64,000 nt of DNA from NCBI GenBank assembly GCA_965205265.1, contig CBDBGH010000003.1:1056001-1120000 (forward strand), in the 5' to 3' direction. Both the position numbers and the translations under genes were made by a program. Position 1 is the stretch's first letter, and each line of letters begins with the position of its first letter. Shown in pieces: positions 22,208 to 52,176 of this stretch. A model generated the notes under the pieces. That model was given only the letters and a program-made list of their open reading frames with translations, was not told the DNA's origin and searched no databases. The DNA comes from Alphaproteobacteria bacterium. GTDB lineage: Bacteria > Pseudomonadota > Alphaproteobacteria > Bin95.

Positions 22208-22966
22208 CTACAGCCGGGCGGCGAAATCGAATATCGCATCCGCGACCCGCTCCGGCGCCTCGATGGGGGCGCCGTGGGCGAGACCGTCCAGCACCAGGGC
22301 CCGGGCATCCGGAATGGCCTGTGCAAGCGCGCGGCTCATGGCGGGGGTGGAGTTGATGTCATGCTCGGCCGTCATGGCAAGCGTGGGGCAGGCGATGCGC
22401 CCGGCTTCCCGCGCGAGTTCGGCGTCGGCCGTCGCGAACACCCGGTAGGCGGCGAGATAGGCCGCCGGATCGTTGGCCAGCAGGCGGCGCCGGACCGGTT
22501 CGACAAGCTCGGGCGAGGCCTTGCGGAATTCCTCCGTGAACCAGCGTGCGATGGCCGGGTCGGCCATGCCGGCGGGGCCGTCGCGCTCCACCGCGGCGAG
22601 GCGCTGCAATATCGCGGCGCGCTGGCCCTCGTCGCGGTCGAACACGGCGTTCATCAGCACCAGCCCCCGCAGCGCGGCCGGCCGGTCGAGCGCGAAGCGC
22701 TGCGCCACCATCGCGCCCATCGAGAAGCCGACGACGACCGGCGCGCTGTCGAGACCGCCCGCAATGTCCGCCAGGGCGTCGGCAAAGGTTGCCAGCGTCA
22801 CCTCGCCCTGCGGCACGGGGGCCTCGCCGTGGCAGGGCATGTCGAAGGCGATGCAGCGCAGCCTGCCGGCGAGGCAGCGCGAAACCCCGTCCCACATGCG
22901 CCGGTCCAGTCCGACCCCGTGGACAAGGACCGCAGCCGGGAGCCCGCCGGTCGCCGGTGCGCTCAT
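22208..22966 (-). CDS. Alpha/beta hydrolase, TgnD-like
   Basis: LVHGVG, GFSMG nucleophile, MNAVFDR, YLAAYRVFATAD, DINSTPAM; ATGA-coupled to the LLM gene. Confidence 0.85.
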   Translation of the reverse strand: MSAPATGGLPAAVLVHGVGLDRRMWDGVSRCLAGRLRCIAFDMPCHGEAPVPQGEVTLATFADALADIAGGLDSAPVVVGFSMGAMVAQRFALDRPAALRGLVLMNAVFDRDEGQRAAILQRLAAVERDGPAGMADPAIARWFTEEFRKASPELVEPVRRRLLANDPAAYLAAYRVFATADAELAREAGRIACPTLAMTAEHDINSTPAMSRALAQAIPDARALVLDGLAHGAPIEAPERVADAIFDFAARL

Positions 22967-24000
22967 GCGAAGGCGGGCACCACTTCGTCGATAAAGAGGC
23001 GAAGCGACTCCCGCTTCTCGCTGAACGGCATGCCGTTGTCGATCCACAGGCTGTACTGGTCGAAGCCCATCGCTTCGTAGTTCCTGAGCCGGGCAATCAC
23101 CTGCTCCGGCGTGCCGACGACATTGTTGGCGCGCATCTTGTCCGGCGAGAACATGTCGAGCTTGGCCATCTCCTCTTCCGTCAGCGGCTGGATCATGCCC
23201 TGGTCGATGGGCCGCTCATTGCGGAACCAGGCGCCGAAATGGCAGTAGAACCGGCTGAGCGCCCGCGCTCCGGCCTCTGCCGCCTCCTCGTCGGCGGCGA
23301 CATGGGTGTGGCGCAGCAGCATGATCCGCGGCCGCGGGACCTCCGGATGGGCGGCGCAGGCATCCTCGAAACGCTGCATCAGCCGCTCCACCTCGTCATC
23401 GCCCTGCCAGAGCGGCGTCACCTGCACATTGCACCGCTCGGCGACCGCGAATTTGTGGCTGTCGGGGTCGCGGGCGGCGATCCAGAGGGGCGGATGCGGG
23501 CTCTGGACGGGTTTCGGGGAGGAGGTGGTCTTCGGGAACTGCCAGCGCTCGCCGTCATGCGCATAGTCGCCCTGCCAGAGCTTCTTCACTGCCGGCACCG
23601 TCTCGCGCAGCGCCGCGCCCGCCGAGGCGGCGTCGAGGCCGGGCGACAGCCGCTCGTATTCGAAGCTGTAGGCGCCGCGCGCGATGCCGAGCTCCAGCCG
23701 CCCGCCCGTCACGATATCGGCCAGCGCCGCTTCGCCCGCGAGCTTTATCGGGTGCCAGAAGGGCGCCACGATGGCGCCGGTGCCGAGGCGGACATGTTTC
23801 GTCCTGTTGGCGATATCGGCGAGCGTGATGAACGGGTTCGGCGTGATGGTGAAATCCATGCCGTGATGTTCGCCGGTCCAGATGGCCTCGAAGCCGCCCT
23901 CGTCGGCCATCCGGCAGAGCTCCAGCGACTCCCGGTAGAGCTCGGCATGGTCGCGGTCCGGCGTCAGCCGTTCCATGTGGACGAACAGGGAAAATTGCAT
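22963..24000 (-). CDS. Luciferase-like flavin monooxygenase, TgnB-like (trigonelline/homarine-type oxygenase)
   Basis: MQFSLFVHMER, WTGEHHGMDFTITPNPF, APFWHPIKLAGEAA, ARGAYSFEYER; recalled close similarity to Acinetobacter TgnB. Confidence 0.85.
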   Translation of the reverse strand: MQFSLFVHMERLTPDRDHAELYRESLELCRMADEGGFEAIWTGEHHGMDFTITPNPFITLADIANRTKHVRLGTGAIVAPFWHPIKLAGEAALADIVTGGRLELGIARGAYSFEYERLSPGLDAASAGAALRETVPAVKKLWQGDYAHDGERWQFPKTTSSPKPVQSPHPPLWIAARDPDSHKFAVAERCNVQVTPLWQGDDEVERLMQRFEDACAAHPEVPRPRIMLLRHTHVAADEEAAEAGARALSRFYCHFGAWFRNERPIDQGMIQPLTEEEMAKLDMFSPDKMRANNVVGTPEQVIARLRNYEAMGFDQYSLWIDNGMPFSEKRESLRLFIDEVVPAFA

Positions 24001-24307
24001 TGCCGAACTCCCGGAACGCGCCCGCAGAGAGACCGAAGGCTTCATAACACGACACGCCCTTCTTTCACCGCCCCGATTTCCGGCGTCCCAAGGCAATCGC
24101 TTTTGAAGATTTGCGAGCAGGGCGCATGGCGTGGATTCAACCGGGTTTCGAGAGGTTCGGCGGCATCGGGACCCGGATCGACGCCCGACGGCTTGGTTCC
24201 CAAGTCGTCATGCCCACTCCCATATCGTCATGCCCGGACTTGTTCCGGGCATCCATGCAGCCGCCCCGGGAGAAGCGGTGGAGGGAGAGAGCTGCCCGGA
24301 ACAAGTC

Positions 24308-24669
24308 CACTGCTGTCCGGCTTAGATTTGGTGGACAGAGCGCATGGCTTGGATTCAAGCGGGTTTCGAGGGGTTCGGCGGGATCGGGACTCGGATCGAT
24401 GCCCGGCGGCCCGGCCCTGTTCCCGTCATGCCCGCCCCCCATATCGTCATGCCCGGACTTGTTCCGGGCATCCATACGGCCGCCCGGTGGAGCCGCTTGA
24501 GAGAGATACCCGGAACAAGTCCGGGTATGACGAAAGAGCCTGCCCTGAGCCTGTCGAAGGGGGCATTCGGGCCTCACGGGCAAGGGGCGGATCGCAGACG
24601 CCGCGCGCCCCCGAAACCCCCGGCGGACTCCCGTTCAACCTCGCCCAATGGCTGAACCGGACAGCAATG
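24308..24669. mobile_element. Non-autonomous MITE (362 bp) with IS4-like termini
   Basis: TIRs CACTGCTGTCCGGCTTAG / CATTGCTGTCCGGTTCAG (15/18 identical); perfect 9-bp TSD GAACAAGTC at 24299-24307 and 24670-24678. Confidence 0.88.
24445..24532. repeat. Intact CGTC-type REP doublet inside the inner MITE
   Basis: CGTCATGCCCGGACTTGTTCCGGGCA (24445-24470) / TACCCGGAACAAGTCCGGGTATGACG (24507-24532). Confidence 0.88.
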
Positions 24670-24862
24670 GAACAAGTCCGGGCATGACGGAGGAGGGCGT
24701 TCGGGCATGACGGAAGAACCAGTCCCGAGCCTGTCGAAGGGGGCCGTTCGGGCATGACAAATCCGAAAGCGATTGCCCCGCCGGCTTCCTCCGGGCGGGG
24801 TTGGGGCAGGGCGCATGAGGGGGTACAGACGCAATGGACGGATGAGGGATCGGACCGGATAG

Positions 24863-26074
24863 ATGGGTGACACCGGCGGCGGGCCGCCGCTCCGCATTTC
24901 CAACCGGGCAGCCAGAAGGCTGTTTCTCGACCGGCATGGCCTCTGCCGGCCGCCGCCGGGCGAGGACCTCGCAGGGCTGATCGAACGCCTCGGCTTCGTG
25001 CAGGTGGACAGCATCGCCACGGTCGAGCGCGCCCATCACATGATCCTGGCCTCGCGGCGCAGAAGCTACCGGCCGCGGCAGCTCGACAACCTGCTGGAAC
25101 GGCGGCGGGCCCTGTTCGAGCACTGGACCCACGATGCTTCGGTCATCCCCATGTCGTTCTATCCCCACTGGCGGCTGCGCTTCCGCCGCGATGCCGAAAT
25201 GCTGCGCGCGCGCTGGCGCAACTGGCGGCGCGCGGGGTTCGAGGAGCGGTTCGACGACGTGCTGGAGCGGATTCGGGAGGGCGGTCCCGTCATGGCGCGC
25301 GACTTCGAGGGCGGCCGGCAACGCACGGAAGCCGGCTGGTGGGACTGGCACCCTTCCAAGACCGCCCTGGAATTCCTCTGGCGCACCGGCGCGCTCGCCA
25401 TCGCCCGGCGCGAAGGCTTCCAGAAGGTCTTCGACCTTGCCGAGCGGGTGGTGCCCGAGGCCTATCGGAGCATGGCGCCGGGCGAGGAGGAAACGCTCGA
25501 CTGGGCCTGCAGGAGCGCGCTCGACCGGCTCGGCTTCGCCACGCCCCGGGAGATCGCGTCGTTCTGGGACACGGCCTCGCTCGCGGAGGCGCGCGCCTGG
25601 TGCGCCAGGCAGCATGCCGACACGCTAGTCGAGGTCGAAGTGGAAGGCGCCCGGCCGGGCCAGATACGCCGGCTGCTCGCGCGGCCGGACGCAGGCGAGC
25701 AGGCGGAGCGGGCGCCCGAGCCTCCGGGCGGCGTGCGTGTGCTGAGCCCGTTCGATCCCCTGCTGCGGGACCGCAAGCGGGCGGAGTGGCTGTTCGGCTT
25801 CCGCTTCCGCATCGAAATCTTCGTCCCGGAGGCGAAACGCGAATACGGCTACTACGTCTTCCCGCTGCTGGAAGGCGACCGGCTGATCGGGCGCATCGAC
25901 ATGCGGCGCAAGGAAGGCCGGCTGCGCGTCAGCGCGTTCTGGCCGGAGCGGGGCGTGCGCCTCGGCAAAGGGCGGATGGAGCGCATCGGGCGCGAACTCG
26001 ACCGCATCGCCCGCTTCGCCGGCTGCGACCGCACGGTCTTCGAAAACGGCTGGATCAGGGAGACGAGGGAGTAG
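24863..26074 (+). CDS. ycaQ: YcaQ family DNA crosslink-repair glycosylase (HTH_42)
   Basis: FVQVDSI (QxD), ERAHH, LFEHWTHDAS, GWWDW, LSPFDPL, EYGYYVFPLL. Confidence 0.88.
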   Translation: MGDTGGGPPLRISNRAARRLFLDRHGLCRPPPGEDLAGLIERLGFVQVDSIATVERAHHMILASRRRSYRPRQLDNLLERRRALFEHWTHDASVIPMSFYPHWRLRFRRDAEMLRARWRNWRRAGFEERFDDVLERIREGGPVMARDFEGGRQRTEAGWWDWHPSKTALEFLWRTGALAIARREGFQKVFDLAERVVPEAYRSMAPGEEETLDWACRSALDRLGFATPREIASFWDTASLAEARAWCARQHADTLVEVEVEGARPGQIRRLLARPDAGEQAERAPEPPGGVRVLSPFDPLLRDRKRAEWLFGFRFRIEIFVPEAKREYGYYVFPLLEGDRLIGRIDMRRKEGRLRVSAFWPERGVRLGKGRMERIGRELDRIARFAGCDRTVFENGWIRETRE

Positions 26075-51113: not shown

Positions 51114-52031
51114 ATGTCCGAGGGAGTATTGGAAGGCAAGGTCGTTCTGGTGACGGGGGCGGGCCGTGGCATCGGTCGCGAGGTTGCGGTTCTGGCGGCG
51201 CGCGAGGGCGCGCAGGTGGTCGTGAACGACCTTGGCGGCGATGTCGGCGGTTCGGGGGCGGATGCGACGCCGGCCCAGGAGACCGTGGCGATGATCGAGG
51301 CGGCGGGCGGCGAGGCGGTCGTCAACGGCGACAGCGTGGCCGATTACGAGGCGGCGGGCCGGATGGTCGGCCAGGCGGTGGAGACCTTCGGGCGCATCGA
51401 CGGGGTTGTGAATGTGGCCGGCATTCTGCGCGATGTGATCTTCCACAAGATGAGCGAGGCGGACTGGGATGCGGTGATTTCGGTGCATCTCAAGGGCTCG
51501 TTCAATGTGGCGCGCAATGCGGCGGACCGTTTCCGGGCGCAGGAGTCGGGGGCGATGGTGCATTTCACCTCGACCTCGGGTCTGATCGGCAATTTCGGCC
51601 AGGCGAACTATGCGGCGGCGAAGATGGGGATTGTCGGGCTGTCGAAGTCGATTGCGCTCGACATGCAGCGCTTCAATGTGCGCTCCAACTGCATGTCGCC
51701 CTTCGCCTGGACGCGCATGATCGGGACCATCCCGTCGAATACGCCGGAGCAGGAGGCGCGGCTCGCCAAGATCAAGCAGATGACGCCCGCGCAGATCGCG
51801 CCGATGGTGGTCTATCTGCTTTCCGACCTCGCAAGCGGCGTCACCGGCCAGATCTTCGGCAGCCGCATGAACGAACAGATGCTGTTCAACCAGAACCGCC
51901 CCGTGCGGTCCGTGCATCGCAGCGAGGGCTGGACGCCGGCCGACATCCACGAACACGCCATGCCGGCCCTGAAAGCCGCATTCACGCCCAACGAGCGTTC
52001 CGGCGACGTCTTCAACTGGGACCCGATCTGA
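51114..52031 (+). CDS. SDR oxidoreductase (3-hydroxyacyl-CoA dehydrogenase / MFE-2 N-domain-like)
   Basis: TGAGRGIG, VVNDLG, AGILRD, GNFGQANYAAAK. Confidence 0.92.
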   Translation: MSEGVLEGKVVLVTGAGRGIGREVAVLAAREGAQVVVNDLGGDVGGSGADATPAQETVAMIEAAGGEAVVNGDSVADYEAAGRMVGQAVETFGRIDGVVNVAGILRDVIFHKMSEADWDAVISVHLKGSFNVARNAADRFRAQESGAMVHFTSTSGLIGNFGQANYAAAKMGIVGLSKSIALDMQRFNVRSNCMSPFAWTRMIGTIPSNTPEQEARLAKIKQMTPAQIAPMVVYLLSDLASGVTGQIFGSRMNEQMLFNQNRPVRSVHRSEGWTPADIHEHAMPALKAAFTPNERSGDVFNWDPI

Positions 52032-52053
52032 CCGGGGCCGGAGAGCCGGGCGT

Positions 52054-52176
52054 CGGCCGCCCTTCGATACGCGCACGCTGACGCGGGCGCTACTCAGGGA
52101 GAAGGAAAGTGCGAAGGCTGAGTTCCGGCCCCCCTCATCCCGAGTAGCGGCGCAGCCGCGTATCGAGGGACGGCCG
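52054..52176. repeat. REP-like imperfect inverted-repeat doublet between convergent genes
   Basis: CGGCCGCCCTTCGATACGCG...GCTACTCAGGGAGA versus TCATCCCGAGTAGC...CGCGTATCGAGGGACGGCCG. Confidence 0.7.

Follow-up and report, generated by a model that had tools for sequence, protein, structure and literature searches.

Our analysis indicates that the intergenic region at positions 24080-24789 of the window (the whole stretch of DNA analysed, 64,000 nucleotides) holds one MITE nested inside another. We put at roughly 85% the probability that this nest results from two successive cut-and-paste transpositions, with DDE transposases supplied in trans, and that MITE families jointly amplify and disperse REPs of the CGTC type without a RAYT. 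The nest lies between two genes that point away from it, and REPs within the 64-kb window are confined to the outer element. A preliminary description of this DNA gave the coordinates correctly throughout, and every feature that it named is present in the sequence. From left to right, the locus consists of:

22963 to 24009, minus strand: flanking gene for a luciferase-like monooxygenase (PF00296, 206 bits), pointing away from the nest.
24080 to 24088: left target-site duplication of the outer element, CCGGCGTCC.
24089 to 24780, plus strand: outer element, 'MITE-B', with ISAs1-type ends, 692 bp including the nested inner element; its limits are those of the empty-site junction in the close relative G014 and in a contig of run X24.
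24089 to 24112, plus strand: left terminal inverted repeat of the outer element, identical at 22 of 24 nt to the left end of an ISAs1-family IS (L015:1332-2546, 1215 bp).
24226 to 24255: left member of the outer element's REP doublet, uninterrupted (CGTC tag, stem of 9 bp, loop CTTGT of 5 nt, CCA tail).
24293 to 24307: left half of the right REP that the inner element interrupts, ending in the left copy of that element's target-site duplication (24299-24307, 9 nt, GAACAAGTC).
24308 to 24669, plus strand: inner element, 'MITE-A', REP-homing, with IS4-type ends, 362 bp; 28 full-length copies, with most ends of the family at REP apexes.
24308 to 24325, plus strand: left terminal inverted repeat of the inner element, the same 17-18 nt as the ends of a 1270-bp IS4-family IS (G010, L140:1394-2663).
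24445 to 24532: cargo REP doublet of the inner element (repeat pair I2, 29-nt arms, 93% complementary).
24652 to 24669, minus strand: right terminal inverted repeat of the inner element.
24670 to 24689: right half of the interrupted REP, opening with the right copy of the inner element's target-site duplication (24670-24678, 9 nt, GAACAAGTC).
24753 to 24780, minus strand: right terminal inverted repeat of the outer element, matching the ISAs1-family IS of G010 at 26 of 28 nt of its right end.
24781 to 24789: right target-site duplication of the outer element, CCGGCTTCC.
24863 to 26074, plus strand: flanking gene for an AlkZ-like DNA glycosylase (PF06224, 232 bits), pointing away from the nest.

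The inner element is bounded by 18-nt terminal inverted repeats (CACTGCTGTCCGGCTTAG and the reverse complement of CTGAACCGGACAGCAATG match at 15 of 18 positions) and by a perfect target-site duplication. When it is removed and 24293-24307 is joined to 24679-24689, the resulting 26 nt form a perfect inverted repeat with 24226-24251 (repeat pairs I4 and I8), as had been proposed. It also carries an intact doublet of its own, and the stretch that holds this doublet (24440-24538) forms one long hairpin on folding, at -36.4 kcal/mol with a z of -8.9. In this genome the family to which it belongs has about 45 MITE copies, 28 of them full length, with identities of 73-100%; the copies nearest to the inner element are 98.3% identical. 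The 18-nt end pattern occurs 70 times in the genome, against no occurrence of the same pattern read backwards. A half REP, cut at the exact hairpin apex, adjoins 41 of 44 left ends and 40 of 43 right ends, with a 9-bp duplication. This bias (81 of 87 ends at the apex) bears out the proposal that the family is aimed at REP loops, and the family is neither single-copy nor randomly placed, two of the outcomes that had been named in advance as speaking against it.

Among the 28 full copies, the direct 9-bp duplications are perfect in 18 and have one mismatch in 4. In five others the flanking 9-mers are inverted and in one the left end has diverged, neither of which is predicted by simple transposition; inverted flanking 9-mers were also counted, by eye, at 4 of 8 REP-like sites in other genomes. 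Inter-locus recombination was rejected as the origin of the inverted flanks for two of the five copies (C3:2816197 and C3:999733), where both flanks are collinear on one G014 contig. In two copies a variant REP loop, GACTTGATC, is duplicated on both sides of the element, and one copy (C3:636222-636584) lies at a non-REP site with the duplication CGGCCGGCG and no REP, which shows that the REP halves are the target and lie outside the element proper. The inner element is short, has terminal inverted repeats and a target-site duplication, occurs in many copies, contains no transposase gene and shares its ends with an autonomous IS; a tblastn search of the genome with the transposase of that IS, from G010, matched no inner MITE copy. 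A plasmid collection searched with the inner element yielded four Skermanella records only, which matched in the REP doublet alone, at 74-77% identity, and contained no IS.

The IS4 partner that the preliminary description had guessed for these ends is present in relatives. The same-genus genome G010 has four copies of a 1270-bp IS with inner-type ends and an IS4-family transposase gene, and the first ~50 nt of its left end are homologous to those of the inner MITE. Its transposase scores 243.6 bits against NF033592 (cut-off 115 bits), and the transposases of L048 and L043 score 243.5 and 248.1 bits. The YREK motif follows the spacing Y-2-R-3-E-6-K, which YKRRWQVELFFKWIK and YKRRWAVELFFRWVK in the partner transposases fit. 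Of the four G010 copies, two lie at REP apexes, flanked by the duplication GAACAAGTC, and the other two at non-REP sites with the duplications CGCCGTGGC and CAGCGACGG; in other Alphaproteobacteria, ISs of 1259-1275 bp with inner-type ends are also found in the apex of local palindromes. In their size, ends (CACTGCTGT) and 9-bp duplications these ISs agree with the IS4Sa subgroup, for which Table 1 of De Palmenaer et al. (2008, PMC2266710) gives 1150-1750 bp, ends of the form CA------T and direct repeats of 8-10 bp. Our own genome holds the inner-type IS only as a 488-bp remnant (tblastn match C3:1981771-1982236), and no autonomous IS with inner or outer ends was found in it by an end-pattern scan, by self-BLAST repeats of at least 600 bp (an inventory in which the ends of 15 IS families were inspected), by PF01609 or by tblastn. 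Two pairs of ends spaced as in an IS each turned out to belong to two MITE copies or fragments on either side of ordinary genes, squalene/phytoene-synthase-like at C3:687902-689777 and glutathione-S-transferase-like at G009:C265:5638-8154, both judged from translations read by eye.

The outer element has terminal inverted repeats of its own, with GGCAATCGCTTT and AAAGCGATTGCC near its ends (pair I16), and its two target-site duplications match at 8 of 9 positions. Eight left-end and nine right-end matches to its family were found in the genome; other copies have 9-10-bp duplications at non-REP sites, and in sister copies uninterrupted REPs stand in the same position. In agreement with the ISAs1 partner that had been suspected, the outer ends match a 1215-bp ISAs1-family IS in the congeners G010, G005 and G015, whose transposase scores 389.7 bits against NF033564 (cut-off 70 bits) and which makes 9-bp duplications (CCAAAATGT and GCCCGTAGG). 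This genome has one degenerate ISAs1 gene, with a stop codon and without matching ends. A second ISAs1 type in G005 was discarded as a partner on account of its other ends (CAGGGCGAATTAATTG), and inverted-repeat scans of four further ISAs1 loci gave no usable ends. The inner and outer elements share a core and differ in their ends, each of which matches a different IS. Both are MITEs, as originally claimed.

A search for empty sites in relatives and in reads, which had been recommended, was successful. In G014 a single CCGGCTTCC stands at the locus without any REP, and the outer limits coincide with this junction to the base; a second congener, G007, and a contig of the public run X24, in which 24079 is joined directly to 24781, likewise have a single CCGGCTTCC and are REP-free. 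These empty sites show that the outer element brought REPs to the locus, where the inner element would then have homed into one of them, and they substantiate the view that MITEs spread REPs; a second MITE delivery to a REP-free site is seen at C3:2816106-2816632. Because neither element is present at any empty site, the outer one could also have carried the inner one when it arrived. Among the run contigs, those of X20, X21 and X23 read through the outer left junction (23900-24121) and the outer right junction (24756-24950 and 24759-24950) with 0 differences, as well as the inner left junction (24293-24370 and 24295-24362); in all, contigs of other runs cover three of the four nest junctions with 0 or 1 difference. 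None of the run contigs spans the whole nest or contains a joint with the outer element present and the inner one removed, and other contig joints were cross-matches between copies.

The REP at 24226-24255 reads CGTC-ATGCCCGGA-CTTGT-TCCGGGCAT-CCA, and a REP identical to it folds with -10.5 kcal/mol (z -4.3). It has the architecture of the CGTC-tagged class, which the accessible text of PMC3733652 describes by a CGTC tag, an 8-9-bp stem starting AT, a 4-5-nt loop, a short CCA tail and frequent inverted dimers: here the CGTC is followed by a 9-bp stem starting AT, a 5-nt loop and CCA, and most loci are inverted dimers (102 of 168). Nesting recurs genome-wide, with the inner family in its own kind at six loci and in the outer kind at four; the architecture of the present nest is found again at nine other loci, and other inner-family copies have themselves been hit at their two cargo REPs. 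The idea that the inner element brings fresh targets with it agrees with both its own doublet and the self-nesting. MITE context applies to 147 of 300 REPs, of which 110 lie inside inner- or outer-type copies and 37 more beside the ends of a third MITE family, which carries the same doublet as cargo, has 8-bp duplications and possibly IS1595-type ends. The outer and third families occupy varied intergenic sites. The other 153 REPs have no MITE context; by locus, a MITE segment within 400 bp is lacking at 76 of 168, and 54 of these 76 share no flank with another of the 76. Outside the inner and outer families there are 61 doublets, whose units are highly uniform in length (70-76 bp) and sharply bounded by CGTC...GACG, and two further genomes are rich in REPs with few inner-type ends (96 and only 2 in G011, 36 and 1 in G008). 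Given the 153 REPs and 54 loci without MITE context and the counts in G011, the proposed alternative to RAYT-driven spread stands as a route of REP spread, but not demonstrably as the main one; the size of the MITE share is something that we infer.

The RAYT gene that the preliminary description had advised looking for was not found: PF01797 gave no candidate in this genome, which is 98.98% complete. Among 17 genomes of the genus the profile had one match only, a partial one in the REP-poor G015, and in a control it matched 6 of 14 genomes, E. coli included. A RAYT gene flanked by REPs, which would mark membership of the REPIN-RAYT systems, was not found here.

We propose that a MITE with ISAs1-family ends would first have landed in a REP-free promoter region between divergent genes, duplicating CCGGCTTCC and importing one REP doublet. 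A 362-bp MITE with ISRm22-like ends of the IS4 family would then have inserted into the right REP, with cuts staggered by 9 bp around its dyad, an event that duplicated the 5-nt loop and two closing base pairs per side (GAACAAGTC) and added a second doublet. In the genome at large, insertions of the IS4-type family go to REP apexes, each with two fresh targets, and MITEs that are not aimed at REPs (the ISAs1 type and the third type) take the same doublet to new loci. Both MITEs would have been mobilised in trans, and a transposase dimer probably recognises the symmetric or hairpin-prone target. The self-seeding cycle put forward in the preliminary description holds for REP homing, cargo and delivery, but homing of the inner family alone only stacks REPs where REPs already exist; it is the outer and third kinds, not aimed at REPs, that seed new REP loci. 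Since the genome has no intact cognate transposase for either family, the cycle here is a record of past activity. We entertain, as a tentative and somewhat doubtful extension, that CGTC-type REPs in the genus are propagated chiefly as MITE cargo via DDE transposases, with at least three families (IS4Sa-, ISAs1- and possibly IS1595-type ends) carrying the doublet, the non-targeting ones seeding loci and the IS4Sa type adding two REPs per hop. The inverted 9-mers may, in this extension, stem from integration into the folded hairpin of the REP doublet and not from later recombination.

The most serious competing explanation accepts the nest and treats the cycle as incidental: a dedicated enzyme, unknown or lost, would have spread the doublets, which merely came to lie in several MITE families as well, and these families would contribute little to the number of REPs. 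We give it a real chance, if clearly less than an even one. It draws on the 153 REPs without MITE context, on the 61 regular and sharply delimited doublets, on the 96 REPs against 2 inner-type ends in G011 and on the finding of one doublet in three MITE families that are unrelated, a pattern that insertion of the doublet itself would produce; the accessible text of Di Nocera et al. (2013, PMC3733652) also allows that a CGTC-specific transposase may have disappeared. Yet no Y1 transposase was found in 16 of the 17 genus genomes, 147 of 300 REPs do have MITE context, and delivery of REPs by a MITE to a REP-free site is directly evidenced at two loci. Moreover, several pairs of inner-family copies are 98-99% identical, which indicates that REPs were copied recently through MITE movement.

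Insertion at random, with selective survival of copies in harmless REPs, is very unlikely. REPs are intergenic and insertions are tolerated there, but selection is unable to bring 81 of 87 ends to the same single base within a 17-bp core, the ~345 apex sites are by our own arithmetic roughly 6 in 100,000 genome positions, and the outer and third families lie at varied intergenic sites. We consider it still less probable that a longer terminal inverted repeat includes the REP halves and that the inner element does not target REPs at all. Flanks and ends do combine into 33-nt arms that are 76% complementary (pair I3), and 5 of 28 copies have inverted 9-mers; in 22 of 28, however, an asymmetric 9-mer is repeated in direct orientation, which is unexpected for an inverted repeat, sister copies of the outer family have uninterrupted REPs in the same position, and the idea is already contradicted by insertions with 9-bp duplications away from REPs, both in the MITE family (C3:636222-636584) and in two of the four autonomous G010 copies. 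The chance that tandem duplication, or misassembly of an intergenic region rich in repeats, produced the nest is next to negligible. Direct repeats ~218 bp apart (D1, D3, D9 and D4, with spacings of 214-219 and 180 bp) and the fact that no short-read contig spans the nest could be read in this way, but the repeated parts are the core common to two families whose ends match different ISs, both the duplications and the empty sites fit to the base, contigs from other runs confirm three of the four junctions almost without differences, and the architecture recurs elsewhere in the genome.

Insertion into REPs is known from ISRm22 of Sinorhizobium meliloti, a REP-targeting member of the IS4 family and IS4Sa subgroup according to the accessible text of Tobes and Pareja (2006, PMC1525189) and De Palmenaer et al. 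(2008, PMC2266710). It resembles the inner partner in its family, in ends that start with CA and in insertion at the axis of REP palindromy. A relative on S. meliloti pSymB, with a 39% identical transposase, sits in a palindrome and has the end CAGGGCTGTCCGG, one base different from CACGGCTGTCCGG here; this copy, at a place where the record is unannotated, is probably ISRm22. Imperfect direct repeats are given for 3 of 9 ISRm22 copies in the accessible text of PMC1525189 and are seen in 6 of 28 inner copies here. ISRm22 targets a different REP sequence and is reported there with 6-bp repeats, against 9 bp in our case, and the main text of that article contains no word beginning with MITE, miniature or nested. 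Unlike ISRm22, the abundant form here is a 362-bp MITE that contains its own target twice and inserts into members of its own family. REP targeting by this IS4 group was known before; a MITE derivative that carries the target is new, and a literature search that took in few subscription journals found no paper on a REP-carrying MITE aimed at REPs.

Other ISs with a fixed insertion point in such palindromes have other transposase families and other chemistries and are autonomous; the IS110 family, for one, is RNA-guided. They include IS1397 and ISKpn1 (IS3 family) and ISPpu9, ISPpu10 and IS621 (IS110 family), all reported for REP/BIME palindromes (PMC1525189 among the sources). The part of the literature that we covered held no description of these ISs as REP carriers. 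There is also a likeness to the REPIN-RAYT systems that Bertels and Rainey reportedly described in 2011, in that two inverted REPs and a spacer fold as one long hairpin and occur in hundreds of copies. The differences are that RAYT is not found here, that the tag is CGTC and not GTAG, and that movement leaves 8-10-bp target duplications, because the surrounding MITE is the mover. For REPs of the CGTC class, the accessible text of Di Nocera et al. (2013, PMC3733652) names no dedicated transposase and leaves the mode of movement open; beyond what is described there, about half of the REPs here are within or next to MITEs that have DDE-type ends, and delivery by a MITE is documented through empty sites.

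With a hairpin tip as landing site and the hairpin as cargo, REPs would multiply without an enzyme of their own, and a REP that is the landing pad of one MITE family would allow transposon and target to amplify each other. The 1270-bp IS, the 362-bp MITE and the 17-bp target together form a compact model for the recognition of a palindromic or hairpin-prone target by the IS4 family, and the growth of intergenic repeat clusters as nests in these genomes finds an explanation. For the multiplication of CGTC-class REPs, this provides a concrete and testable route, travel inside MITEs that are moved by common DDE transposases.

The window covers C3:1056001-1120000 of a genome (G000) of 5.70 Mb assembled in three contigs, with a G+C content of 65-68% by contig. 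The genes on either side of the nested elements are divergent and encode a luciferase-like monooxygenase and an AlkZ-like glycosylase. Both elements, their duplications, the split REP and the doublet carried inside proved to be where the preliminary description had placed them:

24089-24780, outer element, flanked by CCGGCGTCC and CCGGCTTCC
24308-24669, inner element, 362 bp, with 18-nt ends that agree at 15/18 positions and a perfect GAACAAGTC on both sides
24445-24532, intact REP doublet within the inner element

When rejoined, the halves of the REP interrupted by the inner element give 26 nt exactly complementary to the left REP (24226-24251). The predicted fold of a lone REP (-10.5 kcal/mol, z -4.3) has a stem of 9 bp and a loop of 5 nt; that of the segment 24440-24538, which contains the doublet, is a single long hairpin (-36.4 kcal/mol, z -8.9). 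The 9-mer duplicated by the inner element consists of the REP loop plus two closing base pairs per side. The entire 64-kb window holds three intact REPs and one split REP, all within the outer element.

The inner family comprises 28 full-length copies in G000 (identity 73-100% by BLAST), among them those at 51794 and 5422852, which stem from a single insertion within a large segmental duplication. Several pairs have a nearest-neighbour identity of 98-99%; the window copy is closest to the one at 2816197 of the same contig, C3 (98.3%), and that at 1653338 is equally close. A map of the family's ends in G000, queried with the ends of six diverse copies, placed 41/44 left ends and 40/43 right ends against a REP half at the same exact base (≤2 mismatches). 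The flanking 9-mers of the 28 copies are perfect direct repeats in 18 cases, direct with one mismatch in 4, inverted in 5 and of another kind in 1, and in two copies a variant REP loop, GACTTGATC, is present on both sides of the insertion. The end map and the duplicated flanks together show that the REP halves belong to the target and not to the element, and with ~345 apex sites in 5.7 Mb (our own arithmetic) the bias towards apexes is not explicable by chance. As for the exceptions, the duplication around the copy at C3:636222-636584, CGGCCGGCG, is perfect and non-REP, and one left end is diverged; the left end at 2540411 and the right end at 2533097 have (C/T)ATTGCGTC in common and are thus those of one copy separated by an inversion. 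On C3 (5.46 Mb), nearly all inner copies lie before the 4.1-Mb point, the sole copy beyond belonging to the segmental duplication, a segment of ~24.5 kb near both contig ends (C3:36590-61081 and 5407582-5432139) with identical copies at 51794-52100 and 5422852-5423158. Inverted inner-family ends also surround a squalene/phytoene-synthase-like gene (404 aa; C3:687902-689777, locus L001, with unmatched flanking 9-mers) and, in the genome G009, a glutathione-S-transferase-like gene (242 aa; C265:5638-8154, locus L013), both genes being named by eye.

In the 5/28 copies with inverted flanks, the left 9-mer is the reverse complement of the right:

C3:2816197, 520844, 3620503, 999733 and 1728067 of G000, inverted-flank copies; also loci L032, L043, L094 and L039

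Inverted 9-mers were likewise seen by eye at 4/8 REP-like sites of other genomes. For ISRm22, a passage of Tobes and Pareja (2006, PMC1525189) reports three imperfect repeats among nine copies and attributes them to recombination between copies. Rearrangement between loci is excluded for C3:2816197 and C3:999733, since both flanks are syntenic in the same-genus genome G014, where a single contig carries them with order and orientation unchanged. The host doublet at C3:2816197 is without its spacer and inner REP halves, which fits two insertions in one doublet followed by a deletion, or, more speculatively, integration into a folded doublet. The spacer is kept at C3:999733, where the right 9-mer alone is flipped, as would be compatible with gene conversion by another copy, aided by homology of the REP arms, or with quasi-palindrome correction.

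No IS with the ends of the inner element was found in G000 by end-pattern scan, repeat inventory or transposase profile search; there is an IS4-type remnant of 488 bp with an internal deletion, inside a REP variant (C3:1981754-1982241). When the 18-nt end pattern was scanned in one genome per species, end pairs 1259-1275 bp apart turned up in other Alphaproteobacteria and in one Nakamurella assembly, enclosing a 380-385-aa gene with an NF033592 (IS4 family) match of 243-248 bits (cut-off 115). The same-genus genome G010 bears out the suspected IS4 origin: it has four intact 1270-bp ISs with inner-type ends and a transposase scoring 243.6 bits against NF033592, two of them inserted at the REP apex used by the inner family, where GAACAAGTC is duplicated, and two at non-REP sites (CGCCGTGGC and CAGCGACGG). 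The left ~50 nt of the MITE are similar to the left end of this IS far past the inverted repeat. In other genomes, ISs and short derivatives with inner-type ends occupy the apexes of local GC-rich palindromes of differing sequences, which points to recognition of the target by symmetry or structure rather than by a single sequence. Symmetric 9-bp target preferences are well established for IS10 and IS50. Tobes and Pareja (2006, PMC1525189) draw the corresponding link for Tn5. A relative on S. meliloti pSymB (protein 39% identical, ends CAGGGCTGTCCGG), which we take to be ISRm22, is embedded in CCCTCTCCCCG...CGGGGAGAGGG. Tobes and Pareja describe every copy of ISRm22 as lying in a REP, at the axis of palindromy, and a section of De Palmenaer et al. 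(2008, PMC2266710) places it in subgroup IS4Sa (1150-1750 bp, CA ends, 8-10-bp repeats).

The outer family has 8 left and 9 right ends in G000. With the inner element removed, its interior is homologous to that of the inner family (repeat pairs 85-96% identical), the two differing only at ~18-24 nt on the left and ~27 nt on the right. The ISAs1 assignment suggested for the outer ends also held, as they are the ends of a 1215-bp ISAs1-family IS (22/24 nt left, 26/28 right; NF033564 at 389.7 bits) that makes 9-bp duplications. Given the shared interior, the outer family looks like a chimera, with ISAs1 ends round an inner-type core. NF033564 matches number 27 in G010, 26 in G005 and 14 in G015, the latter two also of the genus; G000 has a single ISAs1 gene, degenerate and containing a stop codon, without outer-type ends. 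Duplications of 9-10 bp surround other outer copies, which sit at non-REP sites: AGAAGCAAA, ATTCGGTTCC, GGGTTGCGGC and CGGACGAA(C/A)T.

Empty sites for the nest are present in two relatives and in a public sequencing run. The G014 locus, with a flanking gene 96% identical, has its flanks joined at 24088|24781 of the window, where they overlap by 9 bp and CCGGCTTCC occurs once; the 736 bp of G000 correspond to 61 bp in G007; and a 325-nt contig of run X24 connects 24079 to 24781. No REP is present at the nest locus in G014, G007 or the X24 contig. As the window's REPs lie solely within the outer element, these comparisons indicate that the outer element took REPs to a REP-free locus, one of which the inner element would then have struck. 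The outer element might instead have brought a nested inner one along on its arrival, as all the empty sites are without both elements; sister outer copies have an uninterrupted REP at the position split in the window.

Nesting recurs in G000: six loci have an inner copy nested in another inner copy (in its right REP at five, in its left at one), and four, the window among them, have one in an outer-type host. A third MITE family, found via an inverted-flank copy, has ~21-24 ends in G000 and also holds the REP doublet. Its inverted repeats of ~22 nt start with GGGGATTACAAAGATAGGTTGAC, its 8-bp duplications are frequently AAACATGA or the complement TCATGTTT, and one copy has an exact empty site in G014. 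As a lead, its ends are similar to those of an IS1595-family element of G000, which encodes a transposase (NF033547, 196.8 bits) and a further open frame, with a weak Dam-like methyltransferase match (50.5 bits, under cut-off):

C3:2816106-2816632, third-family copy; ~20 other loci, e.g. C3:42328-42549 and 1205681-1205916
C3:2077500-2080342 (locus L174), 2.84-kb IS1595-family element, 5 copies, ends GGGGATTATATAC..TTGAC

G000 has 300 REP cores (≤2 mismatches; 217 exact) at 168 loci, 102 of them doublets. Inner- and outer-type copies (60 loci, 18 kb) contain 110/300, and another 37 are ≤130 bp from third-family ends, so that 147/300 have a MITE context and 153/300 do not. At 76/168 loci no segment of the three families lies within 400 bp; of these, 22 have a flank in common with another of the 76, and the remaining 54 have none. 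The genome is very IS-rich, with a 1.93-kb element in ~63 copies (566-aa DDE_Tnp_1 transposase) and further elements of 2.8 kb (34 copies), 4.1 kb (18), 2.5 kb (17) and more; in the window, a 1.48-kb IS (3 copies) extends into 1-812 and a 0.9-kb repeat occupies 51122-52032. A 2.57-kb element (C3:2143285-2145857, one of 19 copies; ends GTATGCGGTGCG / GTAAGCGATGCG, which resemble those of the IS66 family) lies within a REP loop and is flanked by an 8-bp duplication, CTTGTTCC; in the set of exact left REP halves, one loop insertion of this element was seen and one of the 63-copy IS.

The preliminary description had proposed a self-seeding cycle of MITEs and REPs independent of RAYT transposases. 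The RAYT profile PF01797 gave no candidate in G000, control genomes being positive, and one partial match among 17 genus genomes, in G015, which has 6 REPs. In their architecture the REPs of G000 conform to a class with CGTC tags (Di Nocera et al. 2013, PMC3733652), described in a passage of that paper as lacking "a dedicated transposase". In these related, and hence not independent, genomes the highest counts of REPs and inner-type ends go together (254/70, 213/47 and 147/29), and the counts are discordant in G011 (96/2), G012 (88/8) and G008 (36/1). The cycle was largely borne out, in its apex bias, own cargo, nesting and REP delivery; a role of MITEs as the main vehicle in the spread of CGTC-tagged REPs is possible. 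The targeting of REPs by the IS4Sa subgroup is already known, and so are MITEs in general. The novelty lies in a MITE derivative bearing its own target, which leads it to nest in copies of its own family, in a single REP doublet common to three families of MITE, and in REP delivery to virgin loci, which is documented here.
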